Assembly: GCA_963663995.1 (NCBI GenBank)
Contig: OY760660.1
Coordinates: 840,001-872,000 of the forward strand
Reading direction: 5' to 3'
Source: Erysipelotrichaceae bacterium
GTDB taxonomy: Bacteria > Bacillota_I > Bacilli_A > Erysipelotrichales > Erysipelotrichaceae
Length of the DNA stretch: 32,000 bases
In this document: piece after piece, positions 8,668-32,000 of the stretch
Position numbering within the stretch: the stretch's first letter is position 1
Layout of the letters: every line of letters begins with the position of its first letter
Notes under the pieces: generated by a model
The model's input: the letters and a program-made list of their open reading frames with translations, nothing else
Database searches by the model: none
Told to the model about the DNA's origin: nothing
Translations under genes and position numbers: made by a program

Positions 8668-8678
8668 ATTATTACTCC

Positions 8679-9329: not shown

Positions 9330-9369
9330 TTTTTACCGCGTCAGATAATAATTAGAGTAGATTTATATT

Positions 9370-11946: not shown

Positions 11947-11947
11947 T

Positions 11948-12886: not shown

Positions 12887-12894
12887 AGGGCTCC

Positions 12895-14013: not shown

Positions 14014-14824
14014 TAAAGACTCCTACTTGAAATGCTATATCTCTAATATACGTTAAAGTAGATTTTATTTCATCAATATTTGGTCCTGATTTCATTTCAA
14101 TTGAAACAAAATTTGAATAATTTAGACTTTTTAATATCTTCAATAAATCTATGTGTAATTCTTTGTGATTTTTGTCTATAAGAGCTAAATATGGTTCACT
14201 GATATGAACATGTTTAATAAATTTAATTAATTCGCTATTTAATATATCCACAATATTTTCTTCATTTTCTATGATAGTTCCTAAATCTAAGTTAACACCT
14301 ATCATTTCTTCATTAATCTCTTTTACGAATGCGAAAACTTCACTACTTGTATTTAAGAAGTTTGTATTATAAATTTTTGGATTTGCTTCTAAAGCAATAT
14401 TTACATTGAAACGCTTGCACATTTTCCCTAACTCTTTAAAGAAAAATTTGGCATTAGATAATTCATCATTAGTATTAACATTTCTTATTGAGGGTGAACC
14501 AAATACTAAATTAGGAATCTTCATTGTTTGCGCAAACATACAAATATTTTCAAACTGATTTAAATAATATTTAACATTTTTATCAGAACAAAAAATGGGT
14601 TCTTTCTGACCAAATAAAATTGACTGCATGCTTATCGGTTGAATGTTAACTTGTTCAAGTTGATTTATTACATGAATCAAATCATTTTTAGATTGAAAAT
14701 ATGGTTTATCAAACAAACGTGTGGGAGCGATTTCTAAGTGATTAATTTCTAAATCATTTAGGATATCATACATTTTATTATCATCGTCTTTAGTCCATGC
14801 AATATTTGAAATAGCTAACTTCAT
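14006..14824 (-). CDS. Sugar phosphate isomerase/epimerase (xylose-isomerase-like TIM barrel)
   Basis: 272 aa with the strand-end pattern of the AP_endonuc_2 / xylose-isomerase-like fold: LEIAP, LVFGSP, IALEAN, VNLDLG, HVHISE, VSIEM. ATGA overlap with the upstream SDR gene at 14821..14824. Confidence 0.75.
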   Translation of the reverse strand: MKLAISNIAWTKDDDNKMYDILNDLEINHLEIAPTRLFDKPYFQSKNDLIHVINQLEQVNIQPISMQSILFGQKEPIFCSDKNVKYYLNQFENICMFAQTMKIPNLVFGSPSIRNVNTNDELSNAKFFFKELGKMCKRFNVNIALEANPKIYNTNFLNTSSEVFAFVKEINEEMIGVNLDLGTIIENEENIVDILNSELIKFIKHVHISEPYLALIDKNHKELHIDLLKILKSLNYSNFVSIEMKSGPNIDEIKSTLTYIRDIAFQVGVFNV

Positions 14825-15756
14825 TTTTGTTCACCATTTATAAAAATTTCAATCGAATTTAAGACCTCATCTTTATTTATCAAGTAATGAGAATCCTTAT
14901 TAAATAAGTTTGCATATTTTGTCCACATATTATAAAACTGTGGTTTTCGTTCTAATCTATTGTTAAATTGAACTTTATTTATTTTTTCATATATTTCATA
15001 TGCAAAAACAGGTTCAGTCGCCAAATTTAAAACTTGTATTTCATTCTTTATAGCTACTTCAATATCACTAAAAAGTCGATTAAGCCCATAATATTGAAAA
15101 CAGTCATCTTGATCTGTAAACATTAAACTTGTACAGTTATTATTCTTAAGTACAGTTAATAATAATTCTGATTGATTCTCTTTCAATTTATATGAACCAT
15201 TTACAAATTCATACGATTTTATAATTTCTTGAAAGTCTTCTACACTTATTTGTGATTGAAGTTTTTGATAAAGAGGTGTATTTAAACTTGCTGGGACAGG
15301 GTTCATAAGATCGTAAATGAAGTTCTTTTTTAAACCTTTCCCAAATAATGCCGGTAATCTAAGAATGGATACTTTCTCAAAATATTTGATAGCTAATTCT
15401 TCAGCATATTTACGATTTTTACCATAGGCATGATGATTACTTACATCAAAAAAAGTAGATTCATCTACTTCATCACAATCTGGGAACACATCAATTGTGG
15501 ATATTAAAACAAAGTATCTGGTTTTAACATTTTTTAAAACATTGAACAAGTCATCAATTGATTTTAAATCTTCTTCTGGATATTGATTGGCATACCATTT
15601 TTGAGCACGAATACCCGCACAAACAACTAAGTCATAATCCTCATTAACAATTTCTTCAATATTTTTTGAATTATAAAGATGTGTAAAGTCAAATTGATCC
15701 TTTAAGTTTGATCCAACAAAACCTGTATACCCTATTAATGCTGTTTTTTTATTCAT
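14821..15756 (-). CDS. NAD(P)-dependent epimerase/reductase-like (extended SDR)
   Basis: 311 aa. N-terminal ALIGYTGFVGSNL (GxxGxxG), then LISTIDVF, and HAYGKNRKYAE at the catalytic Tyr/Lys position. 8-nt overlap with the upstream GtrB-like gene. Confidence 0.72.
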   Translation of the reverse strand: MNKKTALIGYTGFVGSNLKDQFDFTHLYNSKNIEEIVNEDYDLVVCAGIRAQKWYANQYPEEDLKSIDDLFNVLKNVKTRYFVLISTIDVFPDCDEVDESTFFDVSNHHAYGKNRKYAEELAIKYFEKVSILRLPALFGKGLKKNFIYDLMNPVPASLNTPLYQKLQSQISVEDFQEIIKSYEFVNGSYKLKENQSELLLTVLKNNNCTSLMFTDQDDCFQYYGLNRLFSDIEVAIKNEIQVLNLATEPVFAYEIYEKINKVQFNNRLERKPQFYNMWTKYANLFNKDSHYLINKDEVLNSIEIFINGEQK

Positions 15757-16678
15757 TATTTTTTAAATCACTTTCAAAATATTCTTTAATAATATAATTT
15801 GGTCTTCCCTTTATTTCAATAAACAACAAAGCCATATATTCAGCAATAATACTTAAAAATATAAACACGAAAGCAAATAGCCAAAAATAAACAAGAGCAC
15901 TTATACTTTGTTCAAAGTTTTTCTCGATTAATAAATATATTGAAAAGATAAATAAGATTATTACATATAAACTTGTAAACAAAGAAACAAGCTTTAAAGG
16001 TTGGTTGGTTGAGACCAAAATATTATGTTTTGCTAATTTTAGTTTTTTGGGAATATTATATTTAGTAACCCCTGCTGCTCGATCAATATCTTCATAGCCG
16101 ATATAGGTTGTTTTAAACCCCACCCATGACCATATATTTTTAATATATCTTCTATTTTCCTTTAAACTTAAAATTGTTTGCGCAACTTGTTTAGTAAATA
16201 GTCGATATTCTCTTTCATTATTCATTACTTTATCGTTGCTTAAAATATTAAAAATTCGATAGTAAGTTTCAGAGTAAAGTTTAGTAAAGAGTGATTGTGA
16301 TTTACGTGAAGTACGATATGTTCCAACTTGATCATAACCTTCATTTTCAATTTTACTAATCATTTCAGATAATAAATAAGGGGGATCTTGTAGGTCAGCA
16401 TCCATTAAAGCTATTAAATCACCTTTAGCACTTTTTAAACCTGCTTCAATGACACCTTCTTTACCAAAGTTTCGAGATAAACTAATACCAGTAATATTTT
16501 TATCTTTTTCTGACAAGTTTTTAATAATATTAAAAGTATCATCGTTACTACCATCATTCACAAAGATAATTTCATAGTTTCTTTTTAATGATATTAGAAC
16601 TTTAGTTAATTCAAGATAAGTTGTTTCAATAACTGCTTCTTCATTGAAACAAGGGATGATAACTGATAAAGTTTTCAT
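15749..16678 (-). CDS. Polyprenyl-phosphate sugar synthase, GtrB/CsbB-type GT2
   Basis: 309 aa with LSVIIPCFNEE, VNDGSNDDT, SRNFGKE and DADLQDPP motifs, two C-terminal TMs and a terminal GRPNYIIKE box. ATGA overlap with the upstream fusion gene at 16675..16678. Confidence 0.9.
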   Translation of the reverse strand: MKTLSVIIPCFNEEAVIETTYLELTKVLISLKRNYEIIFVNDGSNDDTFNIIKNLSEKDKNITGISLSRNFGKEGVIEAGLKSAKGDLIALMDADLQDPPYLLSEMISKIENEGYDQVGTYRTSRKSQSLFTKLYSETYYRIFNILSNDKVMNNEREYRLFTKQVAQTILSLKENRRYIKNIWSWVGFKTTYIGYEDIDRAAGVTKYNIPKKLKLAKHNILVSTNQPLKLVSLFTSLYVIILFIFSIYLLIEKNFEQSISALVYFWLFAFVFIFLSIIAEYMALLFIEIKGRPNYIIKEYFESDLKNNE

Positions 16679-19600
16679 ACTTTTTTAAATCTCCTATTAC
16701 CTTTTATCTTTTCAAATGACTTCAAACCAAAGATTACAGAAATTAATCCAACAAAAATAGCAGATAAATATCCACTAATCTTTTGTATAAGTGTACCATT
16801 ATAAAAAATATAAAGTCTACCTTCTTTAATATCACCTAAATCAACATTTAAAAGTGATTTGCTATCTTTTGTTGTTTTCAATAAGATATATTTACCATTA
16901 TCATCATAGAATGCTCCATAACCTTTATAGTACAAAAGTGGTAATTCTAATTGCGTATTTATATAAGCACCCTGATTAAAATCAACTACATAATTTAGTT
17001 GATTGTTTGAGTATGATATTTCAATAGGGTTTGAGGCATTTATAACTTTATTAGATGCATTTTGAGCTAAATTATCCATGTCAGCACTTTCAGGTAAAAA
17101 TTCAGCATAGTAATATTCAATTGAATACCTAGGGAAATTATCATACCAATACCCAATCATTTTTACATTATAGTAATAGTTAGTCATATATAGGTATTGA
17201 ACAGATATTAAAACTAAAGTTAAAACTTGGATCCACTTGCCTTTTTCAATAACGATTTCATTTATAAAATATGCGGTTAAAATACTTAAGAAAAAAGTTA
17301 ATACAAAATATAGTCTAAATGGAAATTGAATAAAATTAAGGAAAGATATCCAGTTAATTGGTATCACATTTGACACAATAAATAAAGTTGCTAGTGAAAT
17401 AATAAAAGAAAATAATAGTACTTGATTTTTTATAATACTCTTAAATCTAAAAATCAATCCAATAATTGGAATTAAAAATAAATACCATTCTATACCATTA
17501 GGAAATACAGCGAGTTGAGGACTGATAAAAACCAATTGAAAAATGTTATTTATTACATGTTCATGTAAATTAGTCCATGGTGTTTGATATTGGAAAGTAT
17601 CACTAAACATCATTTCTAGTAAAGGTAACCAATAGAATGCTGTTAATCCCAACGTAATGAATATTGCGAACAATATTTGTTTAATTTTATTTAATGAATG
17701 AATAAGAATTTTATAATTGAAAAGCGCGAAAATGAATAAAATAATAACCATAACAATGGTTGTAATCGTATGCGTTAAAATTAATCCAGACATGGAAAAA
17801 GCTAAAAGATAAGCTCTTGGTTTTTCATCATTTATTATTTTATATAATCCTAGAAAAACTAAAGGTACAAAGATGAATGCAACCCATTCACCTAAGGCTG
17901 CTCTTTCAAAAAAATCAGTGTAATTTCTATACACTGAAAAAGTATATAAAAAACTTGCTAATAGAGCTGCAGAACTTGATTTAAATAGATACTTTGAAGT
18001 CCAATACATTGAAAGTGCTGTAAGTAACGTTATTATTACTGCAAATATTTTATAGCTCAATATGAGGCTTAAACCAAAGTCCATCAAATAAACCGGAATA
18101 TAAAATAAACCTAAAGGGTAAAACAAGTTCACTGGATATCCATAACCATAATAAAAACCAGGTAATATTTTTAATTCACTAATATTAGATCTTAAAAGTT
18201 CAAATGATCCAACGATTCGTGAAAAATGATAAATAAGATCATGCCCAGAAGGTATACCTTTTAAAAGCATTGGAAAAATAAAAACAATTGGGATTAAAGT
18301 TAAAGAAATTAAATTTCTTTTTATTTTAAAAAATTTCATTAAATTTTGTTGTTTGTTTTTATGTTTAAAGAATTTTCGAACTTCGAAAAAGATTAAGAAA
18401 ATCAGTAAAATAAATCCAATAAATGTAGTTATCGCTCCTAACTTAAATCCTTCAGGCATAAAATACATTTTTATTGTGTTATCACCTGCATTAATAGGAA
18501 AACCTACAAACCCACCATTTACAGCATAGATTGGCACTGACTCATTGTTGACTGTTACTTTCCATCCCTTATCAAAAGCAATTGATGTTACAACAAAATT
18601 TCTATCTTCACTATAAATGTCTCCTAATAATAGATTCTGATATTTTTCAACATTTTTTATTGAAGCACTCGATGCATCTGATAAATAGGTTTTAATTATT
18701 TCAACATCATTTTCATCTGCAATTATTGTTTGATTTATGAGTGATATATCAGGATTTTTTACATAATCATCATAACTAATAACAAAATTATATGAGTTTG
18801 CGATAGGTCTATATTGATTATTTAGATAAAGTGGTAATCCATAAAAATCACCTATTAAAATAAAGTTTGAATGAGGCAATTCAGATTCACTAGTTACAAT
18901 TGAGTATTTAACACTCGCAAAATCTATGATGTCAGGGTTTGTAATATTCCAAGTCCAACCAAAACCTCGATCTAAACTAATAAGCTTAGATAAATTATCA
19001 ACACTATATTGATAGGTTGAATCATATGTTTTAACATCTGAATAATTATATAAAAGATTCATATTCAAACTTGAATACCAATAAATTGAATCATACGGTG
19101 CATAAATTCGATAATAACCATAATCACCATCTAATTCTTGAAGGTATTGGTTCAATTGATCCGGTGTTTTACCTAAAACAGTTTCTGATTTATTTACAAA
19201 GTCCCAATCTAACTTCTTATAGTTTGGATTCATATTAAACGTAAGATAACTTGCGAATATTATCTCAACTACTGAAATTATGATAATCCAAGTCTTTTTA
19301 TTCTTGTTATCCTTGAATAACACAAAATATATAACCCAAATAAAAATAATAGTTATGATGAACACTATCCATTGAAATGTATTATTGAAAGGATTTACAT
19401 TTAAAATCATAGATAAAACAGGAATATTCAAAAAAATTAGAAGCGAAATAATTAGTGATGTTTTTTTGAGTATTTTTAAATCAATAAATTCTATTTTATT
19501 AAAATATTTCATAGCTAGAACAATATTTAAAAAAATTAAGAACAAAGTCCATCGAAAAGAGTGTTCACTTAATCCATGCATAAATGAACCACCAATTGGA

Positions 19601-20652
19601 AATACTAAAAGAATTATCATAATGCTATAAAATATTCTATTTATTAGTTTATTTTCTTTATCAAAGATACTTTGTCCTAACATTAATGCTGTGAAAGATC
19701 CGCTAAATAACATAAGTTCACGTGTTTGATAAGTTATAGATTCATAAATAGACGTATATTGTTCAATTCCATTATTATTAACAATTTGACTGATAAAAGT
19801 CGAACTAGGGACAAAATGTGCAATTAACAAATGAAAATATACTCTTATATCCTCAAAATAAAAATGTGAATTTGTTGAATTAAACAATCTTGAATTTTGT
19901 AATAATAATAAGACACCAGGTACTATAAGAATAGCTGATAACAAAAAACCAAGTAAATATAAAGCAATTAAAGGAAATGCACTTTTTAAATATTGCTTTC
20001 TATGTTCTTCAAAAAATCGATAAGTATAATAAATTAGTGTAAAAATCGACAATGTATAAAACAAATAAAAATTCATAATCAACATTAAAGCAGTCATTAT
20101 GGCATAAAAAAAGTAAACTTTCTTTTTCATAGCCAATTCTAAACTTGCAAAATATAAAGGTACGAAGCTATAAAAACTTAAATATATTGGAACTTCTACA
20201 TATTTTAATGCCCAAGCAGAAAAAGTAAACAATAGAGCACCAAGAATTCTTGTATATTTATCCCAGTTTCTAACTCTTCCATAGATGTAAAAAGAAAGAG
20301 CAGCTGAAATAAATTTTAAAACGCTCAATATCATCACTATATTGTAGTAATGATTATTTATAAGAATTCCTAAATAGCTATATATATCTCCAAAAATGTA
20401 ATATGACTTAGCCGCTAAAAAATTATTCCCAAAAAACATATTCCAAGACCAAAAGGGAAAAGTTTTTTGTTTTATAGCATTTACGATTAAACGTCTAAAC
20501 TCAATAAAAAATAAACGATATTGTGTTCTTGAGTCAAACCCAATAACAAAAGCTTTACCCTCAATAATATAAGGTACCATTATGAAAGCAGTAATTAATA
20601 TTACAAAACTAATTAAAATTAATATTGGAAAGTATTTCTTTATTAATTTCAT
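16675..20652 (-). CDS. Fusion of two GT-C-like membrane modules: N-terminal YfhO-family plus C-terminal COG5617/PTPS-related-like
   Basis: Continuous ORF. ORF-track residues 1-777 form a complete YfhO: multi-TM region, extracytoplasmic domain, VTSIAFDKGWKVTVNNESVPIYAVNGGFVGFPINAGDNTIKMYF, final TM, basic tail. Residues 778-1331 begin MKFFKIKRN..GIPSGHDLIYHFSRIV..GYGYPVNLFYPLGLFYIP and form a second multi-TM protein with its own extracytoplasmic domain and terminal TM. The ORF-track start at 20670 is TTG. I prefer ATG 20652..20650, which has GGAAGGA upstream and shares one base with the upstream TGA (TGATG). Confidence 0.8.
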   Translation of the reverse strand: MKLIKKYFPILILISFVILITAFIMVPYIIEGKAFVIGFDSRTQYRLFFIEFRRLIVNAIKQKTFPFWSWNMFFGNNFLAAKSYYIFGDIYSYLGILINNHYYNIVMILSVLKFISAALSFYIYGRVRNWDKYTRILGALLFTFSAWALKYVEVPIYLSFYSFVPLYFASLELAMKKKVYFFYAIMTALMLIMNFYLFYTLSIFTLIYYTYRFFEEHRKQYLKSAFPLIALYLLGFLLSAILIVPGVLLLLQNSRLFNSTNSHFYFEDIRVYFHLLIAHFVPSSTFISQIVNNNGIEQYTSIYESITYQTRELMLFSGSFTALMLGQSIFDKENKLINRIFYSIMIILLVFPIGGSFMHGLSEHSFRWTLFLIFLNIVLAMKYFNKIEFIDLKILKKTSLIISLLIFLNIPVLSMILNVNPFNNTFQWIVFIITIIFIWVIYFVLFKDNKNKKTWIIIISVVEIIFASYLTFNMNPNYKKLDWDFVNKSETVLGKTPDQLNQYLQELDGDYGYYRIYAPYDSIYWYSSLNMNLLYNYSDVKTYDSTYQYSVDNLSKLISLDRGFGWTWNITNPDIIDFASVKYSIVTSESELPHSNFILIGDFYGLPLYLNNQYRPIANSYNFVISYDDYVKNPDISLINQTIIADENDVEIIKTYLSDASSASIKNVEKYQNLLLGDIYSEDRNFVVTSIAFDKGWKVTVNNESVPIYAVNGGFVGFPINAGDNTIKMYFMPEGFKLGAITTFIGFILLIFLIFFEVRKFFKHKNKQQNLMKFFKIKRNLISLTLIPIVFIFPMLLKGIPSGHDLIYHFSRIVGSFELLRSNISELKILPGFYYGYGYPVNLFYPLGLFYIPVYLMDFGLSLILSYKIFAVIITLLTALSMYWTSKYLFKSSSAALLASFLYTFSVYRNYTDFFERAALGEWVAFIFVPLVFLGLYKIINDEKPRAYLLAFSMSGLILTHTITTIVMVIILFIFALFNYKILIHSLNKIKQILFAIFITLGLTAFYWLPLLEMMFSDTFQYQTPWTNLHEHVINNIFQLVFISPQLAVFPNGIEWYLFLIPIIGLIFRFKSIIKNQVLLFSFIISLATLFIVSNVIPINWISFLNFIQFPFRLYFVLTFFLSILTAYFINEIVIEKGKWIQVLTLVLISVQYLYMTNYYYNVKMIGYWYDNFPRYSIEYYYAEFLPESADMDNLAQNASNKVINASNPIEISYSNNQLNYVVDFNQGAYINTQLELPLLYYKGYGAFYDDNGKYILLKTTKDSKSLLNVDLGDIKEGRLYIFYNGTLIQKISGYLSAIFVGLISVIFGLKSFEKIKGNRRFKKV

Positions 20653-22145
20653 CAATATGATTCCTTCCAATAAAAGATAACATCTGTGTCCATTGGAATA
20701 TTATTATAAATTTTAAAGGCTTCCATGTGATAGCTATCTTCTTCTTCGATATCACCAGCATGTATGGTATAGATAGGATAGCGAGGTAACCAAATGCCTG
20801 TTGTATACTGATCTGAATATAGATGATAATCATCTAGTATCATTTCACGTTCATGATAAATATTGGCTACAGCATTATATTTGATATAAAAGGTACGCAC
20901 ATCTATAAATGACATAACAATTAAAATTACGATCATTCCATTTTTTATTAGCCTATTAATTTCTATGATTTCCAAAATTAATACAAAACTTATAAACATA
21001 TAAAATACAGCATATAAAATTAAGCGAGAACCAATAACTGGTGACATCAAAAGGCTTGCACTACTTAAACTTGCAATGCCCATAAATATAATTAAATACG
21101 GTTGTTTTAATTTATAAATATTTAAACGTATTATCTGACTCAAAAGTAAAACAATATAAAGAACCCAAAACAACATTGACCACCACTGTGTCACATCAAA
21201 TAAACGAGCAGTTTGGGGTAAATATTGTATTAATCTTGTGTTTAATAAATATATTATCGCTATTCCATAAACCAGAATACTCATTACAAATTCAATTTTT
21301 GAGAAAGTCTTATAACTTACATAGATTAATAGGCAAGATAGAGAAAAAATAATGACTTTATTTTGAATGAATACATAATTTATAATTTGAGGTAAATTTC
21401 TAAGTACTTTTTCAAAAATGCTTAATGTTTGCCATTCAGGCATAGTAGCTAATCGGATATTTGATCCAGGACTTAAATACCATATGACAAAGGCAATTCC
21501 ATAAAAAATAATCGAAACAATTAGTATCGGATGAACTTTTTTTTGTTTATAAAAATCATAAACAATTAAACTTAAAACCACAAATCCAATAGCTATACTT
21601 ATATTTTCCATACCTAATGGTAGATAAAAAGATGTAAATGCAACTAGGATATAAGAAATCCAATTTTCTTTACCTTTAAATAGTGAATTTGTTATTGTGA
21701 ATAATAATACTATAGATAACCATAAGGGTATTCCATAATAGATAGAACCTGTTATCCAAGTATAGGTTTCCATACGAATATTATCTTTTATAGATACTAT
21801 AAAGAAAAATAAAAATAATAATGATAATTTTTGATTCTCTTTTTTAATAAATGAAGATAACAAATAAAATGTATTGGCAAAAATAAATGCATTTAATAGA
21901 TTCCATATTTCTTTATATTGAATCAGTGTATGCATAGAAAACAGGGTCATTAAACGACCTTCCCAGTGAAAATACATACCAATAGCAGCATCTACAACAT
22001 TAGATTTGACGACGTTGTTATGGAATGCCCAATCATCTCCTGACAAAGGTGTTTTATAGGAAATATAATAAAACAAACAAAAAACAATAGATGTCATCAT
22101 TAATCTAAAACGATTATCTTTTACATATTTGATTATTTCACCCAT
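20652..22145 (-). CDS. Polytopic membrane protein, GT-C-like (acidic DD motif in first external loop)
   Basis: 497 aa, hydrophobic throughout. The first loop after TM1 reads KTPLSGDDWAFHN, placing a DD pair where GT-C enzymes carry catalytic Asp residues. The same feature occurs in the 451-aa protein at 24159 (GFIDDNAY). GAGGG RBS lies 5 nt upstream of ATG 22145. Confidence 0.6.
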   Translation of the reverse strand: MGEIIKYVKDNRFRLMMTSIVFCLFYYISYKTPLSGDDWAFHNNVVKSNVVDAAIGMYFHWEGRLMTLFSMHTLIQYKEIWNLLNAFIFANTFYLLSSFIKKENQKLSLLFLFFFIVSIKDNIRMETYTWITGSIYYGIPLWLSIVLLFTITNSLFKGKENWISYILVAFTSFYLPLGMENISIAIGFVVLSLIVYDFYKQKKVHPILIVSIIFYGIAFVIWYLSPGSNIRLATMPEWQTLSIFEKVLRNLPQIINYVFIQNKVIIFSLSCLLIYVSYKTFSKIEFVMSILVYGIAIIYLLNTRLIQYLPQTARLFDVTQWWSMLFWVLYIVLLLSQIIRLNIYKLKQPYLIIFMGIASLSSASLLMSPVIGSRLILYAVFYMFISFVLILEIIEINRLIKNGMIVILIVMSFIDVRTFYIKYNAVANIYHEREMILDDYHLYSDQYTTGIWLPRYPIYTIHAGDIEEEDSYHMEAFKIYNNIPMDTDVIFYWKESY

Positions 22146-23189: not shown

Positions 23190-24119
23190 ATGAAAAAATT
23201 GTCTATTATAGTTCCATGTTATAACGAGGAAAAAGCACTACCTCATTTTATTGACGCAGTCATTAATGAAAGTAATAAAGTTGATTATCATTTTGAATAT
23301 ATCTTTGTAAATGATGGCTCAAAAGATAAAACACTGAATGTTCTAAAAAAATTAAAAGAAGAAAATAATAATTTAGATATTCAAATTATCGATTTTAGTC
23401 GTAATTTTGGTAAAGAAGCTGGAATATTAGCTGGGTTAAGCGAATCTACTGGTGATTTAGTTGTCATTATGGATGCCGATATGCAAGATCCCCCAGCATT
23501 ATTACCTGAAATGTTAAAACGAATAATTGTGGAAGATATTGATAGTGTCGCCACTTATCGTGTCACACGTACTGGTGAACCAAAAATCAGAAGTTATTTT
23601 GCAAGGAAATTTTATCAACTCATAAACAAAATAAGTGAAGTCGATATTGTAGACGGATCACGTGATTATCGTATGATGACACGTACAATGGTCGATGCCA
23701 TACTTTCTTTAACTGAATATCATCGATTCTCTAAAGGCATCTTTGTTTGGGTTGGATTTAAAACTGATTATCTAGAGTTTGAAAATGTTGAGCGTATAGC
23801 TGGTGAAACTAAATGGTCTTTTTGGAAATTATTTAAATATGCCATTGAAGGCATAGTTGCTTTTACTACTTTCCCATTAAGAATATCTACATTTGTCGGT
23901 TTTATATTTTCATTAATTGCTTTCATCTATATGATTTTTGTTATTGTAAAAGCATTCTTGTTTGGTGATCCAGTTGCTGGGTACCCATCAATGATGGCTA
24001 TTATCCTATTCTTAGGCGGTATTCAACTTCTTTCATTTGGCATTCTTGGCGAATATTTGGCAAAAACATACATGGAAGTCAAACATAGACCTAATTATGT
24101 AGTACGTAAAAGATATTAG
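23190..24119 (+). CDS. Polyprenyl-phosphate sugar synthase, GtrB/CsbB-type GT2
   Basis: 309 aa with LSIIVPCYNEE, VNDGSKDKT, SRNFGKE and DADMQDPP motifs, two C-terminal TMs, and GEYLAKTYMEVKHRPNYVV. Confidence 0.9.
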   Translation: MKKLSIIVPCYNEEKALPHFIDAVINESNKVDYHFEYIFVNDGSKDKTLNVLKKLKEENNNLDIQIIDFSRNFGKEAGILAGLSESTGDLVVIMDADMQDPPALLPEMLKRIIVEDIDSVATYRVTRTGEPKIRSYFARKFYQLINKISEVDIVDGSRDYRMMTRTMVDAILSLTEYHRFSKGIFVWVGFKTDYLEFENVERIAGETKWSFWKLFKYAIEGIVAFTTFPLRISTFVGFIFSLIAFIYMIFVIVKAFLFGDPVAGYPSMMAIILFLGGIQLLSFGILGEYLAKTYMEVKHRPNYVVRKRY

Positions 24120-24158
24120 TTTAATCATTTTATTCATTTAAACATTAAGGGTTAATTT

Positions 24159-25514
24159 ATGAAAAAAAATAGAATTTTAAATATGATAACTATTAATAAA
24201 GAGAAACTTCCTTTGGTTTTTCTTATAACTAGTTTAATAACACTTTACTCTACTGCAAAACTAGGATTTATTGATGATAATGCATATCTTTCATTAATTG
24301 GGAATCGTTCTTTTGTTGAATTTATAAAATACAATTATGACACTTGGTCATCAAGAATTTTTGGAGCATCACTACATGTACTTATATCACCACATCATTG
24401 GATGTGGTTTATTCTGAATATTGTTGTTTGGGTAATATTGTATTACTCGTTAGATAAAATAATAAATGATTCAAAATCAGTTTATGTAAAATGGGCTATT
24501 GTATTATCATTGCTCTCATATCGTCACTACTATATGGCTTCCGCTGGATGGATAGGAACGACAATAAATTATAGTTGGCCTTTAGCTTTAGGAGTTTTTT
24601 CATTAATTCCTTTTACAAAAATTTTAAGAAACATAAAAATAACTTCTTGGGAATGGTTCTTATTTTATCTTGCACTCTTATTTGCATCAAATTTTGAACA
24701 AATGACATTAATATTAGGTGTTTTATATTTTACTTTTTGGATATATCAGTTATTAAAAAAAGAATCTCACTGGCCAATCTTCATAGGTGGTATCCTAATC
24801 GGAATAAATGTGTTACTGATTGTTTTTAGTCAAGGTAATTTTTCTAGAAGAGTTGCAGAAGTAGATAGATGGTTTCCAGAATATTCTACACTAAGTAATT
24901 TCAGATTAATTGATTTGGGGTTCTCTTCTTCACTCTATCCAGTATATTTTAAACCAGATGTTATTTATTTGCTATTTGCTTTAATATTGGCGCTATTAAT
25001 TTACAAAAAAGACGGATCTATTAAAAATACTATTATCTCTTTTATTCCATTTTCCATAATGATTATATTTGGCATTTTTAACGATAATATAAACAATTTA
25101 TTTCCAACGATTGAATATATTAATAATTCGCTAACTGATATTGGTACTGGTATGAGTTTCACATCTGCTATTAGTTTTATTCCTAATATCATTTTATTAA
25201 TAGCACTAGTTTCATCTATTTATACTATATATGTAGGTTTTGGTAATAGTAACAAATCCTTATTTTTAGTATTGATATTTGTTCTTGGCTTATTAAGTCG
25301 AATGATTATGGCACTTTCACCGACAATATGGGCTTCTGTTGATAGAACATTTATATTTATGCAATTTTCATTTGTAATAGTTGGATTGTTTGCTTTTAAT
25401 GAGCTGATAATTCTAAATTCAATTAATAAGAGAGTATTTACATACATATCATTCATAGTCTTTGTATTAACATTTATTGATAATTTTTATAATATGACTT
25501 TCTTTTTTAGATAG
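24159..25514 (+). CDS. Polytopic membrane protein, GT-C-like partner of the 23190 synthase
   Basis: 451 aa, hydrophobic throughout, with first-loop motif AKLGFIDDNAYLS. AAGGG RBS lies 9 nt upstream of ATG 24159. It follows a GtrB-like gene after a 39-nt gap. Confidence 0.6.
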   Translation: MKKNRILNMITINKEKLPLVFLITSLITLYSTAKLGFIDDNAYLSLIGNRSFVEFIKYNYDTWSSRIFGASLHVLISPHHWMWFILNIVVWVILYYSLDKIINDSKSVYVKWAIVLSLLSYRHYYMASAGWIGTTINYSWPLALGVFSLIPFTKILRNIKITSWEWFLFYLALLFASNFEQMTLILGVLYFTFWIYQLLKKESHWPIFIGGILIGINVLLIVFSQGNFSRRVAEVDRWFPEYSTLSNFRLIDLGFSSSLYPVYFKPDVIYLLFALILALLIYKKDGSIKNTIISFIPFSIMIIFGIFNDNINNLFPTIEYINNSLTDIGTGMSFTSAISFIPNIILLIALVSSIYTIYVGFGNSNKSLFLVLIFVLGLLSRMIMALSPTIWASVDRTFIFMQFSFVIVGLFAFNELIILNSINKRVFTYISFIVFVLTFIDNFYNMTFFFR

Positions 25515-28012
25515 AAATATTCAAGAATCAAAAAAATTAATGTTACTCCACTTATAATTGATCCGATTTTTAAGAAAGGTTGCTCATATACAAATTCAAT
25601 ATTATGCTGACCTTTACTAATATCAAATCCAATAAATGAGTAATTTACTTTATAAGTTTCTACTGGAATACCATCTATTTTTACTTTCCATCCTTTATTA
25701 AAAGCAATTGTTGAAAATACTATAGAATTATCCTTTGTAATATTTATATCTGCTATTATCTTGTCTTCTTCAATTATTAAATTCTCAAATTTATCTTTAT
25801 CATTTATAGAAGAATATATTTCATCGATTAAATCGTTAGATACAAAATAAGCACTATAAATTGGATATTCATTTTTATTATAAATTGCCGTGCAATATAC
25901 ACCTACTCTATCAGCATCTAAATTATTTTCAATTGCGATATAAGCATACTCATTAACAACTTGTGAATTTAGCACATTATTTTCTTTATACCACTCTAAA
26001 TAACATTCAGTATACGGATTAGAAAACGAATAATCAATAAAGAAATATCCATTTTCTTCTTCTGATGTCAGTTGGATATTTGTGACATTTTCAGCAATAA
26101 TTTTCGGTAATATTAGATCATCCAATGTTACTGTTGTCTTTTTATCACTCACAATGGAATTTAACATAGTAATTTCTTTTTCAAATGATGAACTTTTTTC
26201 AATTTCTTTATAATTTGTTAGCTTATCTGATGCAAACCCTAATCCAACGACTAGATTATTTTTATAAATATCAAAATTATCAACTGTTTCTAAATAATCG
26301 TAACCATATGGAGCAACATAATCATTTAAAGCTACATAGTATTTCGAGCCTAATAAACTCTTAAACAAAAATTTTGATTCATTATTACTAATGTTCCATC
26401 CTGTGCCAAAACTGTTATCTAATATTGCTCGCGAATCATGATTATAAATTGTTGAATAAAATGTAAACCCTGAATAATCAAAAGCCAAAGGTTGATTTGG
26501 ATTGTCCACAATACTATCAATTCTATAAAAGTTTTTATCAATATCAATTATATAATCAAATGCCCTGTTTACACTAATGTCTTTACTTATATAATCAGTT
26601 GAACGTACAAATCTTAAATCGAAATTATAGTACAAACGACTTCCAATGCTTAATATTGCTTCAAAAGAAATAATTAAAAAAATCAAAAAATGAAATGTTT
26701 TTTTAAGTTTGATAGAAAAAACAATAATAATCGTATATATGATTACAAAAATAAAAATTAACAATAGTATCACATAAGTAAACCAACGATCTGAATTGTT
26801 GATTAAATTTAAATTTCTACCAAAATATAAAAAGCTTAAAATTAAAGATAAATTTAAAATACTTGTGAATAAAATAGATTTAATATTTAAATTCTTTATA
26901 TTATCTAAAATATATACAACAATTAATGCATTAAAAAAAACAATACCATTTTGCCATCGAACATCACCATTTCCGCTAAATAGTTTGCTTAAAAATGGAA
27001 ATATATTTCCTGAAAAATATATAATATAAAAAATTAAATAATATTTTGTTTCTTTGTTTTTTATAAAAAATAGCAAAGGGAATAACAAAGGAAAAATAAT
27101 AAAAGAATAATAATAATTAAGACTTACATTGTTATTAATTATTCGACTAATAAATAAGTTAGTACTATAATCACTTGAAACTGGAGAGTAAAAACTCGTA
27201 ATTAATTGATATAAATATGAGAAAGACATTCTAATCAAATCAGAATTTATATTTTGAATATTCAAACGAGGAGAACTAAGTAAAATATCAATACTTGGTA
27301 ATAATACAAAACTAGAAAGCAATATTCCGTATATATATAGTTTGATTAAAGGAAAAACAACTGAAACAAAATGTTTAAAATTAAGATTATTATATTGTTT
27401 AAAATAAAGAAAGAGTTGATAAATTATTAAAAACCAAGAAAACATATAAAAACTATAAGAGTTTGAAATGATAAAAAAAGTGACACTTAAAATAAATAAA
27501 TACTTCTTTCTACCAGTCTTAACTTCTTCTACTAAATATAAAAGTATAATAGCCCACAAGTAACTTTCTAGAAAAACATTGAAATGCAACCAATAAGAAA
27601 CATATCCCGAGAAAGTTATAATCAAAGATCCAATTATTGCATTATTTTTAACTAGAGTATGATGGTTTAACCATTTATATGAAAAAACAGAAATTAGGAT
27701 TAAAATTAAAATTTGTTGTAAAAAAAGAAATTGACCTATTAGTACGTACTTATTAATTAATACATAAATATATGTAAAAATTGATCCTAAAATTGAATTA
27801 AAGAAAAAAACATAATTAGTAGCACCAAAGCCAATAGAGTTATTCCATAGGGATATAGAAAAATCTTTCAATAAAAAAAGAATCTGTTTATAAACTGGTA
27901 ACAAAGTATCTAAAGGATCACCATAAAATATTAAAATACCATTATTAAAAAAAATAATATAAAAATATAAAAAACTAAAAATAATAAAATTTATAAATAA
28001 TAGTTTTCTCAT
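25487..28012 (-). CDS. YfhO-family polytopic membrane glycosyltransferase (GT-C)
   Basis: 841 aa with YfhO architecture and the C-terminal signature FSTIAFNKGWKVKIDGIPVETYKVNYSFIGFDISKGQHNIEFVY plus a final TM. Its 3' end overlaps the convergent gene by 28 nt. Confidence 0.85.
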   Translation of the reverse strand: MRKLLFINFIIFSFLYFYIIFFNNGILIFYGDPLDTLLPVYKQILFLLKDFSISLWNNSIGFGATNYVFFFNSILGSIFTYIYVLINKYVLIGQFLFLQQILILILISVFSYKWLNHHTLVKNNAIIGSLIITFSGYVSYWLHFNVFLESYLWAIILLYLVEEVKTGRKKYLFILSVTFFIISNSYSFYMFSWFLIIYQLFLYFKQYNNLNFKHFVSVVFPLIKLYIYGILLSSFVLLPSIDILLSSPRLNIQNINSDLIRMSFSYLYQLITSFYSPVSSDYSTNLFISRIINNNVSLNYYYSFIIFPLLFPLLFFIKNKETKYYLIFYIIYFSGNIFPFLSKLFSGNGDVRWQNGIVFFNALIVVYILDNIKNLNIKSILFTSILNLSLILSFLYFGRNLNLINNSDRWFTYVILLLIFIFVIIYTIIIVFSIKLKKTFHFLIFLIISFEAILSIGSRLYYNFDLRFVRSTDYISKDISVNRAFDYIIDIDKNFYRIDSIVDNPNQPLAFDYSGFTFYSTIYNHDSRAILDNSFGTGWNISNNESKFLFKSLLGSKYYVALNDYVAPYGYDYLETVDNFDIYKNNLVVGLGFASDKLTNYKEIEKSSSFEKEITMLNSIVSDKKTTVTLDDLILPKIIAENVTNIQLTSEEENGYFFIDYSFSNPYTECYLEWYKENNVLNSQVVNEYAYIAIENNLDADRVGVYCTAIYNKNEYPIYSAYFVSNDLIDEIYSSINDKDKFENLIIEEDKIIADINITKDNSIVFSTIAFNKGWKVKIDGIPVETYKVNYSFIGFDISKGQHNIEFVYEQPFLKIGSIISGVTLIFLILEYFYLKKKVIL

Positions 28013-28062: not shown

Positions 28063-28992
28063 TTAAAAATTTATTCTTTTCTCTTCTATTACAAGTGGAC
28101 GGTTCATAATTCGTTGATTAATACTAATAATGTACTCACCAATTATTCCTAAAAAAACAAGTGTTACTGAATTAAACAAAAACAAACCAATGATAATTGG
28201 CGCAAATCCAGCTGTAAAAGTATCCCAATACATAAGCTTTAAGAAGAGATAAATCATTGCAATTCCTAGGCTTATAATTGCTCCGCTAAATCCAATAAAT
28301 GATGCTATCCTTAATCCAATTTTAGTATAAGAAACAAAACCTATCATGGCTGCATCATATAGTTTAAAAAAATTATTACTGGATTTACCTGCTCTTCTCT
28401 TTGCCTGCAAAAAATCAATTTTTTTAATTTTAAATCCTAATTCACTAACTATACCTCTGAAATACGGTTGAGGGTCCTTTAAATCCCGTAACACTTGTAT
28501 AAAATCTTTATCATATAGTCCAAATCCAGTGAAATGTTCAATTTGTTCGACATCTGATGCATATTTAATTAATTTATAAAAAAGTGTTCTAAGAAAGTGC
28601 AATACTGGATTTACTAAACTTTTACTCTTAATTCCAATTACAATTTTATTGCCAGCTTCCCATTCTTTTATAAAGTCTGGGATTCTTTCCAATGGATCTT
28701 GAAAATCTGCAGACATTGTTATAACACAATCACCTGATGTCTGTAATAAACCATAATAAGGTGAATTAAATTGGCCAAAATTTCTTGCATTAAATATTGC
28801 TTTTATATTTGGGTTTTTATTGCATATATTTTCAAGCAAAGCTTGTGTCTTATCTATAGAATGGTTATCTATAAATATTATTTCATAAGTATATTTCTCG
28901 AAAGACTTAAGAATTTTACTTAATTCTTGTGCCATCAATTCAATATTCTCTTCTTCATTATATGTTGGAATTAATATACTAATTTTTTTCAT
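28063..28992 (-). CDS. Polyprenyl-phosphate sugar synthase, GtrB/ArnC-type GT2
   Basis: 309 aa with ISILIPTYNEEENI, IDNHSIDKT, ARNFGQ and SADFQDPL motifs, two C-terminal TMs, and GEYIISINQRIMNRPLVI. ATGA overlap with the upstream epimerase at 28989..28992. Confidence 0.85.
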   Translation of the reverse strand: MKKISILIPTYNEEENIELMAQELSKILKSFEKYTYEIIFIDNHSIDKTQALLENICNKNPNIKAIFNARNFGQFNSPYYGLLQTSGDCVITMSADFQDPLERIPDFIKEWEAGNKIVIGIKSKSLVNPVLHFLRTLFYKLIKYASDVEQIEHFTGFGLYDKDFIQVLRDLKDPQPYFRGIVSELGFKIKKIDFLQAKRRAGKSSNNFFKLYDAAMIGFVSYTKIGLRIASFIGFSGAIISLGIAMIYLFLKLMYWDTFTAGFAPIIIGLFLFNSVTLVFLGIIGEYIISINQRIMNRPLVIEEKRINF

Positions 28993-29897
28993 AATTTTTC
29001 CCCTAAAATAATATTCTTTATACCCTCATTAAAAAGAGTTATCGGTTCAAATCCAACATCTAACTTTAAGTCAGAAATATCTGCTATTAAATGCATAACT
29101 TGGTTTTGTGAATATGGATTTTCTCCGAAAACTAAATCATACTTTGGATTTATTATATCTCTAACATCTTTTATATAATCTTTTAAAGGTTTTCCAATTC
29201 CGCCACCTAAACAATATATCTTATTATTTAAGTCTTTAGATTTAGCAAGTAAATAAAATGCTTGAGCAGCATCAGCTGAATATAAATAATCCCATATCTG
29301 TTCTCCAGCAGTAAGCCGTATGGATGTATTTGTGGATATATTATTAATTAAACTCATAATTAAAGTGTTTTTATCATCATTTGGCCCATAGATACTAAAA
29401 ACTCTTACCCATAAATTTCTTATATTAAGTGTTTTACATAAACTTCTGCTCATATGACCTGCAGTCAATTTAGCAATTCCATATCCTGTTTCCGGATTCG
29501 TTAGTGATTTAGGACTGAGAATTGTATTACTTCTTCCAAACTCAGCCTGTGAACCAGCACCAATAAATAATGAACACCCTAGCTTATTGGCCAAATGGAC
29601 AGCATCTAATGTATAAATAACATTGTCCAGTTGATGATATAAATCATCTCTACCAATACCTATTGTTCCGTCCCACGCAAAATGAAAAAATACATCATAT
29701 TGCTTTGAAATATTTAAAATTTTAAGATTATTTAAATTGCATTCTATAACTTCTACATATATTGATTTAGGAATCAAATTAATATTTTGTGATCCTTCAC
29801 GAACAATTGCTAAAACATATATCTTTTCAGATATCATTTTTTTAATTAAAGCTATTCCAATTGTTCCTGTTGGTCCAGTAATAACAATACTATTCAT
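28989..29897 (-). CDS. NAD-dependent sugar epimerase/dehydratase family (extended SDR)
   Basis: 302 aa with IVITGPTGTIGIAL (GxxGxxG), FIGAGSQAEFG, and YGIAK (YxxxK). Confidence 0.8.
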   Translation of the reverse strand: MNSIVITGPTGTIGIALIKKMISEKIYVLAIVREGSQNINLIPKSIYVEVIECNLNNLKILNISKQYDVFFHFAWDGTIGIGRDDLYHQLDNVIYTLDAVHLANKLGCSLFIGAGSQAEFGRSNTILSPKSLTNPETGYGIAKLTAGHMSRSLCKTLNIRNLWVRVFSIYGPNDDKNTLIMSLINNISTNTSIRLTAGEQIWDYLYSADAAQAFYLLAKSKDLNNKIYCLGGGIGKPLKDYIKDVRDIINPKYDLVFGENPYSQNQVMHLIADISDLKLDVGFEPITLFNEGIKNIILGEKL

Positions 29898-29900
29898 TTC

Positions 29901-30954
29901 TTACTCAACAATAAATGGTGTAAATTCAAAACCATATTTAATTTCATCAATATTAATATCATCAACTACAGATAAGTTCATACTATCATCAATTAAAATT
30001 GCTCTTATTGAGTCGTTTAATTGCTTTTTGTCTTTTTTAATTGAATCAACCAAATCTGTTAACTTTAAATTATATTTCTTTGTTTTTATAATTTGATTTA
30101 AAATAGTTTCAGTTCTAGAGATATAGTTTTCGTTAAGGAGTCCTCGTTTAAATGAAATTCTATTAGCAACTATCATTCCAATCGCAACAGCAGTTCCATG
30201 TGGTACTTTATAATTTGTTGCTGATTCGATAGCATGTCCAAAGGTATGGGCAAAGTTTAACAATACTCTCTCATTACGATCAAATTCATCTTTTTGAATA
30301 TAATTTTTTTTAAAATTTAATGAAAAAGTATTATATTTTATGATAGTTTTTGAATCTCTCTTTAATAATAAATCAACATCTTTTTCAAGTCGATTTAACC
30401 CCTCAAATCCATACATTAAGTTGAATTTAACAACTTCTCCTAGACCACTTAAATAATCCATTTCAAGTAAACTTTTAAAAAAAATTTGTATTTATATATA
30501 TTTTTGTTGGTGGATAAAAAGTTCCTAATAAATTCTTAAAATTCTTGTAGTTAAGAGATGTTTTCCCTCCAATACAACTATCAGCTGATGCTAACAATGT
30601 TGTTGGAAAAAACACCCAATCTATCCCTCGATATAACACATTCGCAATAAAACCAGTTAAATCTTGAACAATACCACCGCCAATTGAAACTAATCTAGCA
30701 TTTCTTTTCCCTGGTATTTCAATCATCTTATCTAAAATATTAAATACTGTTTTTATGTTTTTATTTTTTTCAGTGGCTTTTAACAAAAATAATCTATTTG
30801 AAGGTATGCCATCTAAAAAATCATTGCTATAAAGTGAATAGACTTTGCTATCAACAACATAAAATGTGTTTTTGTTATCATAAATGATGTCAAATATTGA
30901 TGATTTTTTTGTAAATGTAACTTCGTAATTTTTTAGTTGTGATTTAATTTTCAT
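29901..30954 (-). pseudogene. 3-dehydroquinate synthase-like sugar-phosphate cyclase family gene, split by a +1-base frameshift in a T8 (plus-strand A8) tract
   Basis: ORF 30475..30954 carries the N-terminal DHQS motifs (GGGIVQDLTGFIANVLYRGIDWVFFPTTLLASADSCIGGKTSLN, KNLLGTFYPP). ORF 29901..30461 carries the C-terminal motifs (GLGEVVKFNLMYG, LNFAHTFGHAIE, HGTAVAIGM). Removing one base from A8 at 30477..30484 joins them as ...INTNFFKSLLEMDYLSGLGEVVKF..., about 349 aa. I prefer start ATG 30954 (ATGA overlap with the SDR stop) over ATG 31020, which lies inside the SDR gene. Confidence 0.8.
30477..30484. repeat. A8/T8 homopolymer at the frameshift site of the DHQS-like gene
   Basis: Read directly from the sequence: cttttAAAAAAAAtttg. 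The premature TAA (complement of 30475..30477) uses the last T of the tract. Confidence 0.95.
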
Positions 30955-31616
30955 TGAACTGAATAGCCCCCATCGATTACAATTTCTTGACCTGTAATAT
31001 ATGTATTTTTTTCGGAACATAAATAAAAAACTATTTCAGCAATTTCTTCTGGTTGAGCTAGTCTTTTTAATGGAATGGTTTCTGCTATTTTTCCTATTTG
31101 TTCTGTTGAATTATTTTTACTTGTTAGTTCTGTTAATGTAAACCCTGGGCATACTGTATTAACGAGTATATTTTCATTTGCTACTTCAAGAGCTAACGTT
31201 GTTGTGATTCCATGAATACCTCTTTTTGTTGCACTATAAATTCCTCTTCCAGGTTTTGAAACAACTGACCATATTGATGCAATATTTACAATCCTTCCAT
31301 ACTTTTGAGTTTTCATTTTTGGAACAAATGATTTAAGTAGATAGATAGGCGCGATTAAATTTATATTGAATGTATTTTCGATATCTGTTTCTTTAACATT
31401 TTCAATAAGATTAATTTCATTTATTCCAGCATTATTTACTAAAACATCATAGGTATCATTTTTATGATTCTCAATAAATTTTTTAATTGAGTCTATATTG
31501 CTTAAATCTAGTTCATTTCTTGTGGGTGCATAAACAAAATAACCATTACTTTCAAATATTTTTTTAATTTCTAATCCAATCCCTCTAGAACCACCTGTCA
31601 ATAAAACTTTTTTCAT
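30951..31616 (-). CDS. Short-chain dehydrogenase/reductase (classical SDR, FabG-like)
   Basis: MKKVLLTGGSRGIG (TGxxxGxG), NNAGI, and SxxxxxxxxxxxxYSATK (catalytic Ser/Tyr/Lys). I prefer ATG 31616 (GGAG 8 nt upstream, 1 nt after the upstream stop) over ATG 31643, which lies inside the TPP-enzyme gene. Confidence 0.88.
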   Translation of the reverse strand: MKKVLLTGGSRGIGLEIKKIFESNGYFVYAPTRNELDLSNIDSIKKFIENHKNDTYDVLVNNAGINEINLIENVKETDIENTFNINLIAPIYLLKSFVPKMKTQKYGRIVNIASIWSVVSKPGRGIYSATKRGIHGITTTLALEVANENILVNTVCPGFTLTELTSKNNSTEQIGKIAETIPLKRLAQPEEIAEIVFYLCSEKNTYITGQEIVIDGGYSVQ

Positions 31617-31617
31617 T

Positions 31618-32000
31618 TTATTCTCCAAATTTAATACTTTCATATTCTTCTCGATCTAAGAATGGAAACATATCATCTATTCTTGGAGAAACTATCGTTC
31701 CATCTTCTAAAACTTTTGATGATAATTTTGGTTCAAAGTTTTGTTCTACATCTAAAATAACTTCGCATAGAATTGGACCTTTTTCTCTTAACACATTGTT
31801 TAATATTTCATCTAATTTGGAATGGTTATCAATTTTTTTATATTTTATATCATATGCATATGCAATTTTTTCCAACTCAGGAAAACTTACACCATTATCA
31901 GAACACACACCTATTAAATCTTTTTTAGTCAAGTTCTTTTGAGTTTGTCTAATCGAGTGATATCCATTATTATTTAGCACAAATAAAACAATATCTAAAT
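31618..32000 (-). CDS. Thiamine-diphosphate-dependent enzyme (acetolactate-synthase-like), C-terminal part; 5' end off the window
   Basis: The frame stays open to position 32000: translation upstream of the ORF-track GTG reads LDIVLFVLNNNGYHSIRQTQ, the NN-GY-x-IR-x-Q segment of the TPP-binding C-terminal domain of ALS/IolD/YerE-type enzymes. Only ~127 codons are visible, so the subfamily is unknown. Confidence 0.72.
   Translation of the reverse strand, partial: LDIVLFVLNNNGYHSIRQTQKNLTKKDLIGVCSDNGVSFPELEKIAYAYDIKYKKIDNHSKLDEILNNVLREKGPILCEVILDVEQNFEPKLSSKVLEDGTIVSPRIDDMFPFLDREEYESIKFGE

Follow-up and report, generated by a model that had tools for sequence, protein, structure and literature searches.

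The six minus-strand genes that close the 3′ end of a 32,000-nt stretch of DNA from an Erysipelotrichaceae bacterium (contig OY760660.1, positions 840,001 to 872,000; the whole analysed stretch is hereafter called the window) encode, in the direction of transcription, a thiamine diphosphate (ThDP) enzyme, a classical short-chain dehydrogenase/reductase (SDR), an enzyme of the dehydroquinate synthase (DHQS) fold, an extended SDR, a family 2 glycosyltransferase (GT2) and a YfhO protein. We regard this cassette, with moderate confidence, as the downstream half of a conserved module, by which an acyl-branched 3,6-dideoxyhexose would be made and delivered through a three-component lipid-carrier route. 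The evidence consists of the family assignments of the encoded proteins and of the co-occurrence of their genes in other genomes, both of which are observed directly. Since the same gene set recurs in 80 loci of other genomes with its order shuffled, the arrangement is not a matter of chance, and since the module includes rfbF, rfbG, rfbH and a pyruvate aldolase gene in these related loci, it can be placed in the published scheme for acyl-branched 3,6-dideoxyhexoses.

A survey of neighbourhood conservation had been suggested in an earlier interpretation of the window made from its letters without database searches (the sequence-only reading). It was carried out as a genome scan with the DHQS-like protein in repaired form (see below), which returned the 80 loci; all their open reading frames (ORFs) were clustered and the recurrent families annotated, two of the recurrent neighbourhood "families" being spurious antisense ORFs in high-GC loci. 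The loci belong to Lachnospiraceae and other Clostridia, Selenomonadaceae (Selenomonas), Erysipelotrichales, Treponema, Leptospirales, Smithella, Eggerthellaceae and others, the carriers of the family being largely gut Clostridia and Lachnospiraceae. The members of the module are RfbF (glucose-1-phosphate cytidylyltransferase), RfbG (cytidine diphosphate (CDP)-glucose 4,6-dehydratase), RfbH (3-dehydrase), often GtrA, a pyruvate aldolase, a YerE-like ThDP enzyme, the SDR, the DHQS-like enzyme, the extended SDR, a GtrB-like GT2 and a membrane glycosyltransferase of the GT-C class (GT87-like, YfhO or other).

Co-occurrence was counted in those 42 related loci that extend 8 kb or more to either side; the closest relatives are carried by short contigs (8.2 kb for locus L001 and 3.4 kb for L083). 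A pyruvate aldolase of either type was found in 40 of the 42 loci, the ThDP enzyme in 38, rfbF or rfbH in 34, the extended SDR in 28 and the module-type GT2 in 21. The aldolase is HMGL/DmpG-like (about 530 amino acids (aa); 33 loci) or of the unrelated HpcH/HpaI type (263 aa; 7 loci), and the two were never found together in one locus. RfbF, RfbG and RfbH partners scored 399.5, 425.2 and 715.2 bits, all above the curated cutoffs, and Pfam confirmed the second aldolase type, GtrA and the GT87-type GT-C. GtrA often lies between rfbH and the aldolase gene. In L001, the closest locus, the gene order is exactly that of the window; the aldolase gene stands immediately upstream of the ThDP gene, and another membrane protein follows the GT2. 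No conserved kinase, phosphatase or E3 reductase was found when these were looked for in the related neighbourhoods.

Several related loci showed features of their own. At its C-terminus the HMGL-like aldolase is extended by a conserved stretch of about 270 aa (e.g., L002, 5420–7015; L001, 2–1018), which had no Pfam match even at E = 10; the HpcH-type enzyme is without it. In L009 (Lachnospiraceae, 7728–14982) three pairs of extended SDR and GtrB-like GT2 lie by a single ThDP/DHQS-like set, which suggests several lipid-linked sugar variants from one precursor. In L010 (Sporofaciens musculi, 9351–11029) the SDR/DHQS-like pair stands alone, aldolase, ThDP enzyme and rfb genes all missing within 10 kb, so that the pair may act on a primary metabolite by itself. 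In L022, L039, L057 and L061 the pair is accompanied by a split transketolase, a LuxC/LuxE-like acyl reductase and synthetase, and a further SDR (assigned by eye), a gene set that may represent a different branching chemistry.

The order of the six genes in the window is that given in the sequence-only reading, and ORFs and Pfam agree with it; direct reading of the sequence likewise bears out the tight junctions described there. The ThDP carboligase gene, YerE/JanthE-like, is cut by the window edge (31618–32000; C-terminal 126 aa; Pfam TPP_enzyme_C, 1.4e-08), and its stop lies 1 nt from the start of the classical SDR, a FabG-like ketoreductase of 221 aa (30951–31616; Pfam adh_short_C2, 2.9e-44). 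An ATGA overlap joins the latter to the DHQS-like gene (29901–30954), which bears a +1 frameshift and whose halves match one Pfam domain each (DHQ_synthase and DHQS_C). Three nucleotides separate its stop from the start of the extended SDR (28989–29897; "epimerase/dehydratase" family, 302 aa; Pfam Epimerase, 8.1e-30), and another ATGA overlap leads into the GtrB/ArnC-type polyprenyl-phosphate GT2 (28063–28992; 309 aa; NCBIfam PgfS, 1.3e-49). A 50-nt gap between the GT2 stop (28063) and the next start (28012) precedes the gene of the YfhO-family GT-C membrane glycosyltransferase (25487–28012; 841 aa), which matches Pfam YfhO over its full length (2.8e-55, 188.5 bits).

The family tests on the DHQS-like protein were performed with a repaired 350-aa sequence, obtained by removing one base of a run of eight A. 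The repaired protein scored 413.3 bits against TIGR04425 (cutoff 400) and 261.6 bits against the aroB model TIGR01357 (cutoff 305), and the E. coli AroB control gave the reverse pattern (409.3 bits for aroB, 231.7 bits for TIGR04425). Its relatives P0003 and P0027 reached 427.5 and 439.9 bits with TIGR04425, a family with the curated name AroB-related putative sugar phosphate phospho-lyase (cyclizing). Family members are 46–67% identical to the repaired protein and true AroBs at most 35%; a plasmid search returned true AroBs alone, again at no more than 35% identity. More than 6,000 proteins matched at E ≤ 1e-10, a set which may include true AroBs, and the best 120 of them are all 50–67% identical to the window protein. 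On these scores and the reciprocal result with E. coli AroB, the identification as AroB was rejected. Among PDB entries the protein ranks nearer DHQS (5.7e-48 to 1e-35) than DOIS (9.6e-35), the EEVS-type enzyme ValA (7.4e-27) or DDGS (8.3e-21), and its identification as a sedoheptulose 7-phosphate cyclase or DOIS was rejected on this ranking.

The active site was inspected, as the sequence-only reading had also suggested, in alignments with E. coli AroB and the PDB entries. All the metal, phosphate and substrate residues of DHQS are kept in the repaired protein, and the DHQS catalytic residues are at least 90% conserved across 73 further family members. The kept equivalents are, as we take them in A. 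nidulans numbering, R130, D146, K152, N162, E194, K197, K250, R264, N268, H271, H275, H287 and K356; those that presumably bind the carboxylate in DHQS structures are kept as well. Such full retention points to an acid-phosphate substrate resembling 3-deoxy-D-arabino-heptulosonate 7-phosphate (DAHP), and it weakens the analogy with DOIS and the sedoheptulose 7-phosphate cyclases drawn in the sequence-only reading. The family has the motifs CDSC, LNFAHT and HGT of its own. No relevant literature was found on TIGR04425, on DHQS-like genes in caryophyllose or bradyrhizose clusters, or on the roles of the DHQS residues. The enzyme may tailor the side chain of the sugar or form a carbocycle.

The DHQS-like gene is present where the sequence-only reading had placed it but is not intact. 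A run of eight A at 30477–30484 (eight T on the coding strand) splits it into pieces of 159 and 186 aa, and deletion of one base restores the 350-aa ORF. At the equivalent codons the orthologues of L083 and L084 (67% identical) read GAT TTT TTT AGA, that is, a run of seven T encoding Phe-Phe. There are seven A/T runs of eight bases in the window, and only that at 30477–30484 disrupts an ORF. Because of this frameshift the pathway, and with it the decoration, is probably off in the sequence as read. The cause could be phase variation, pseudogene formation or decay, or a homopolymer sequencing error; the position of the frameshift in a homopolymer suggests that the decoration could be switchable on and off.

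The ThDP fragment had a sole PDB match at E ≤ 1e-3, namely 8rph (7.3e-23), the YerE-like ketone-accepting carboligase JanthE (PMC12188165). With the C-terminus of the full-length orthologue of L001 (596 aa) it shares 71% identity; that orthologue matched JanthE at 1.4e-113 (383.9 bits) and PpYerE (5ahk) at 1e-68 (235.8 bits), the best acetolactate synthase (ALS) entry reaching 225.4 bits. No ALS model of NCBIfam attained its curated cutoff for either sequence, and no IolD model was present among the NCBIfam matches of the fragment or among the 25 best listed for the orthologue. The IlvB/ALS and IolD identifications were rejected on these grounds. Of the two possibilities named in the sequence-only reading for this ALS-like enzyme, YerE stood and IolD did not: by its sequence matches the enzyme is of the YerE subclass, and not an ALS, an IolD or a pyruvate oxidase. 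Enzymes of the YerE kind also accept cyclic ketones (PMC12247030).

In 50 of 78 related loci an SDR gene is found immediately upstream of the DHQS-like one, and the SDRs of the 221-aa type are 48–69% identical to the classical SDR of the window. Look-ups of the exact protein sequences of the SDR and the extended SDR returned no record. The extended SDR has the TGxxGxxG and YxxxK motifs, read from its translation. It weakly resembles GalE-type enzymes and 4-hexulose reductases, with UDP-glucose (uridine diphosphate glucose) 4-epimerases as its best PDB matches (1.8e-13), and it did not match the GalE model of NCBIfam. In 10 of the 28 well-flanked loci that contain it there is no module-type GT2. 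It is probably the ketoreductase or epimerase of the pathway that acts on the nucleotide sugar. For the reduction of the branch ketone (the role of YerF or ErwF) the window holds two candidates, the classical SDR (30951–31616) and the extended SDR (28989–29897).

The GT2 matched the PDB structures of GtrB (sll0501; 8.6e-41, residues 3–302 of 309), ArnC (2.9e-24) and DPMS (1.7e-14), and two hydrophobic C-terminal segments are visible in its translation. It is 45–63% identical to the module-linked GT2s of other taxa and 29–30% identical to its GtrB paralogues in the window. Because a dedicated GtrB-like synthase of this kind co-occurs with the cassette elsewhere, the Arn-like logic put forward in the sequence-only reading, with tailoring enzymes next to a lipid-carrier synthase and a GT-C, holds. 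Its expectation that the cassette would travel with GtrB and YfhO was borne out for the synthase but not for YfhO. The YfhO protein, presumed to be the extracytoplasmic transferase, was checked as a conserved partner and rejected, the window YfhO being not orthologous to the GT-C proteins of other module loci, which differ between lineages; thus the conserved part of the delivery is the synthase, and the acceptor-specific GT-C is swapped between lineages. No GtrA homologue was detected in the window by tblastn; the gene was present in 10 of the 42 loci, and that of this genome may lie outside the window.

In the unifying scheme for acyl-branched sugars of Steitz et al. 2022 (PMC9306805), which was proposed and partly demonstrated, the rfb genes lead to CDP-4-keto-3,6-dideoxy-D-glucose, and a pyruvate aldolase (BphI-like ErwI in Pectobacterium, citrate-lyase-type MMAR_2331 in M. 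marinum) makes a hydroxylated 2-oxo acid. [quoted passage not shown] According to a later review (PMC12247030), an in-silico survey counted more than 200 YerE-like clusters, the products of which are mostly unknown. No product structure for the present module was described in the literature found.

When the module is set on this scheme, six steps can be proposed, for which we infer every substrate, the order of steps two to five and the GT2's use of a CDP-sugar. Published precedent and the logic of GtrB/GT-C systems underlie the first, fourth, fifth and sixth. In the first, RfbF, RfbG and RfbH would form CDP-4-keto-3,6-dideoxy-D-glucose; their genes and that of the aldolase are predicted just beyond position 32000. 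In the second, a class II pyruvate aldolase would condense pyruvate and a phosphorylated aldose to a DAHP-like 3-deoxy-2-ulosonate phosphate. Since the module has no conserved kinase or phosphatase, the DHQS-like enzyme is the sole candidate for removal of the phosphate, and this feature, the retention of the phosphate- and carboxylate-site residues and the coupling to a ketoreductase argue for the free, phosphorylated product of the aldolase as its substrate. In the third step it would oxidise this acid transiently with NAD+, so that the phosphate would be lost by β-elimination; the terminal carbon would then take back the hydride, in the manner of sugar 4,6-dehydratases, leaving a ring ketone, and the coupled classical SDR would reduce the remaining ketone to give a methyl-terminated polyhydroxy 2-oxo acid (a 3-deoxy-2-ulosonate).

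In the fourth step the YerE/JanthE-like enzyme would decarboxylate this 2-oxo acid and attach the resulting acyl anion at the CDP-sugar's C4 ketone, and in the fifth the extended SDR would reduce the branch ketone, completing the nucleotide sugar. In the sixth, the GtrB-like GT2 would load the sugar on undecaprenyl phosphate and, after flipping, YfhO would attach it to a rhamnose-containing wall polymer, predicted to be encoded by the rest of the window locus. A seven-carbon acid in the third step would give exactly the side chain of caryophyllose, 1,3,4,5-tetrahydroxyhexyl (structure quoted in PMC5706390). The scheme would assign every conserved gene one use.

Several points weigh against this proposal. 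The enol-pyranose intermediate of DHQS cyclises spontaneously, and the non-cyclising outcome needs a return of the hydride to the terminal carbon, for which we know of no precedent in the DHQS fold; to our knowledge, no GtrB-type enzyme uses a CDP-sugar either. A search of the window (1–32000) found no aldolase, rfbF/G/H or GtrA gene, so that the pathway as a whole is an extrapolation from the related loci. In the window the DHQS-like gene bears a frameshift, rfbF and rfbH are both missing within 10 kb in eight of the 42 well-flanked loci, and the isolated pair of L010 has neither aldolase nor ThDP enzyme within 10 kb. Finally, in the available part of the report on the published acyl-branched sugar clusters (PMC9306805), a DHQS-like enzyme is not needed.

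The first of these points is turned to account if the aldolase and the DHQS-like enzyme are a true cyclase pair, an explanation that we consider rather unlikely. From pyruvate and a tetrose phosphate they would make a DAHP-like acid and then a dehydroquinate-like ring, the ring ketone of which would be reduced by the SDR. Either the YerE-like enzyme would use the ring as its ketone acceptor, or the deoxysugar would carry it as a branch or substituent of cyclitol type; the wall decoration would then be cyclitol-derived, as the sequence-only reading had suggested. Cyclisation is the chemical default of DHQS intermediates, every DHQS catalytic residue is kept, and TIGR04425 is curated as "cyclizing". 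Pairs of aldolase and cyclase are, moreover, a known route to carbocycles, as in archaeal ADH synthase/DHQS-II and GriI/GriH, and the acceptance of cyclic ketones by YerE-like enzymes would suit such an acceptor. That the SDR/DHQS-like pair can stand alone, as in L010, suggests a self-contained product. A dehydroquinate-like product is, however, no longer a 2-oxo acid and cannot be the aldolase-supplied ThDP donor of the published scheme; there is no conserved gene to link the ring to a nucleotide or sugar, and the strong co-occurrence with rfbF/G/H would be only half explained.

It is improbable, in our estimation, that two unrelated units are neighbours here. A Pgf/Gtr-like unit for a common UDP-hexose would then consist of the extended SDR, GT2 and YfhO, with the SDR as a PgfE-like epimerase, and the branched sugar of the ThDP/SDR/DHQS-like genes would go to soluble Leloir transferases elsewhere. 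An epimerase is indeed paired with its synthase in the S. mutans Pgf system, PgfS is the best NCBIfam match of the GT2, and the best, if weak, PDB matches of the extended SDR are the 4-epimerases mentioned above; half of the related loci are without a module-type GT2, and L009 has three SDR–GT2 pairs by one ThDP/DHQS-like set. Yet the GT2 is one of a separate set of orthologues which accompany the DHQS-like gene across phyla, as the identities given above indicate, and the extended SDR, which fails to match GalE, occurs in 10 loci without the GT2, embedded among biosynthetic genes. In addition, several loci have GtrA placed between rfbH and the gene of the aldolase, and all the junctions from the ThDP gene to the GT2 gene overlap or measure no more than 3 nt.

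The last alternative, a primary-metabolism operon of ilvB-type acetolactate synthase, FabG and AroB placed here by chance, would carry the names that generic annotation gives and those of the models (ALS, FabG and aroB, all below cutoff) that dominate the NCBIfam lists, but it is practically untenable, and refuted as far as sequence analysis allows, since no ALS or aroB model reached its curated cutoff, the ThDP fragment matches JanthE alone in the PDB, and the set is met again in polysaccharide loci that contain rfb genes, but nowhere in a shikimate or ilv setting. In agreement with the sequence-only reading, and with the TIGR04425 score above its cutoff, the genes are a sugar-precursor cassette rather than an ilv or aro operon; the branched-sugar part of that reading also stands.

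A broader proposal is offered tentatively. Gut and other anaerobic Bacillota, together with members of other phyla, may decorate their walls with an undescribed higher-carbon sugar built on a CDP-3,6-dideoxyhexose, the side chain of which would be shaped by a repurposed DHQS homologue, acting either as a phosphate-eliminating "deoxygenase", to give a caryophyllose-like methyl-terminated branch, or as a cyclase, to give a carbocycle-bearing sugar; the GT2 would be the first CDP-sugar-dependent synthase of the GtrB type. The module is classed with the known acyl-branched deoxysugar pathways, to which it adds the AroB-like enzyme with its SDR and the lipid-carrier delivery. The module is very common and widespread in gut anaerobes. 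If the model is true, abundant commensals would bear surface sugars of a new class, TIGR04425, a curated family of hypothetical function, would gain a function, and new ThDP and aldolase biocatalysts would be at hand.

The whole window is a locus for wall polysaccharide, and positions 1–28012 hold at least five pairs of genes for lipid-carrier glycosylation. The locus encodes RmlC (689–1228) and RmlD (1230–2075), several GtrB-like and other GT2s, and two DUF6056 membrane proteins (20652–22145 and 24159–25514); the YfhO genes of the window number three, at 9370–11946, 16675–20670 and 25487–28012. A second tailoring cassette with a GtrB/YfhO unit, its junctions overlapping, occupies 12895–20670 on the minus strand. 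It consists of a flavin adenine dinucleotide (FAD)-dependent oxidoreductase (372 aa), a xylose-isomerase-like TIM-barrel protein (272 aa) with weak likeness to IolO and psicose-3-epimerase, an epimerase-like extended SDR (311 aa), a GtrB-like GT2 (309 aa) and a giant YfhO (1331 aa), and may serve to oxidise and epimerise a sugar or lipid-linked sugar. The only plus-strand genes of the region are a divergent pair (23190–25514) of a GtrB-like GT2, whose PgfS match (319.7 bits) is the strongest in the window, and a DUF6056-like membrane protein of 451 aa. On the minus strand at 6136–8667, a LytR-CpsA-Psr ligase domain and a PASTA domain are united in one 843-aa protein, an uncommon combination.

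Among known systems, the acyl-branched sugar pathways, i.e., those of yersiniose (YerE/YerF), erwiniose (ErwE/F/I/J), caryophyllose (MMAR_2331/2332) and gastriose (MyGE), have in common with the module the YerE-subclass ThDP enzyme, NAD(P)H reductases, the setting in a surface-glycan locus and, for the module as seen in related loci, rfbF/G/H and a class II pyruvate aldolase in the same two alternatives (BphI/HMGL or HpcH/citrate-lyase type). Unlike them, the module has no acetaldehyde dehydrogenase partner, and it adds a tightly coupled pair of AroB-related phospho-lyase and SDR, of which the available portions of the published descriptions make no mention. In about half of the module loci delivery is by a GtrB-like synthase with GtrA or a GT-C rather than by a soluble glycosyltransferase. 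Yersiniose, erwiniose and caryophyllose are known so far from Gram-negative and mycobacterial glycolipids, where they shape antigenicity, whereas the hosts of the module are mainly Gram-positive bacteria and gut Clostridia.

With AroB and the sugar-phosphate cyclases DOIS, EEVS and DDGS, the DHQS-like protein shares the fold and the DHQS catalytic, metal and phosphate residues. It differs from AroB in belonging to a separate curated family with its own motifs and in being encoded beside an SDR in glycan loci with no shikimate genes nearby. As in the three-component systems (GtrA/B/V, CsbB/YfhO, GtlA/GtlB and S. mutans Pgf), a GtrB/ArnC-type synthase is followed in the window by a GT-C, here YfhO, and as in the Arn pathway (ArnA-D, ArnC and ArnT), the precursor-tailoring genes are immediately upstream of the synthase gene. 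In contrast to the three-component systems, the window is without GtrA and the GT-C partner is not conserved between lineages; and in contrast to these and to Arn alike, the donor would be a CDP-activated branched deoxysugar, and not a UDP-hexose or UDP-4-deoxy-4-formamido-L-arabinose (UDP-Ara4FN).

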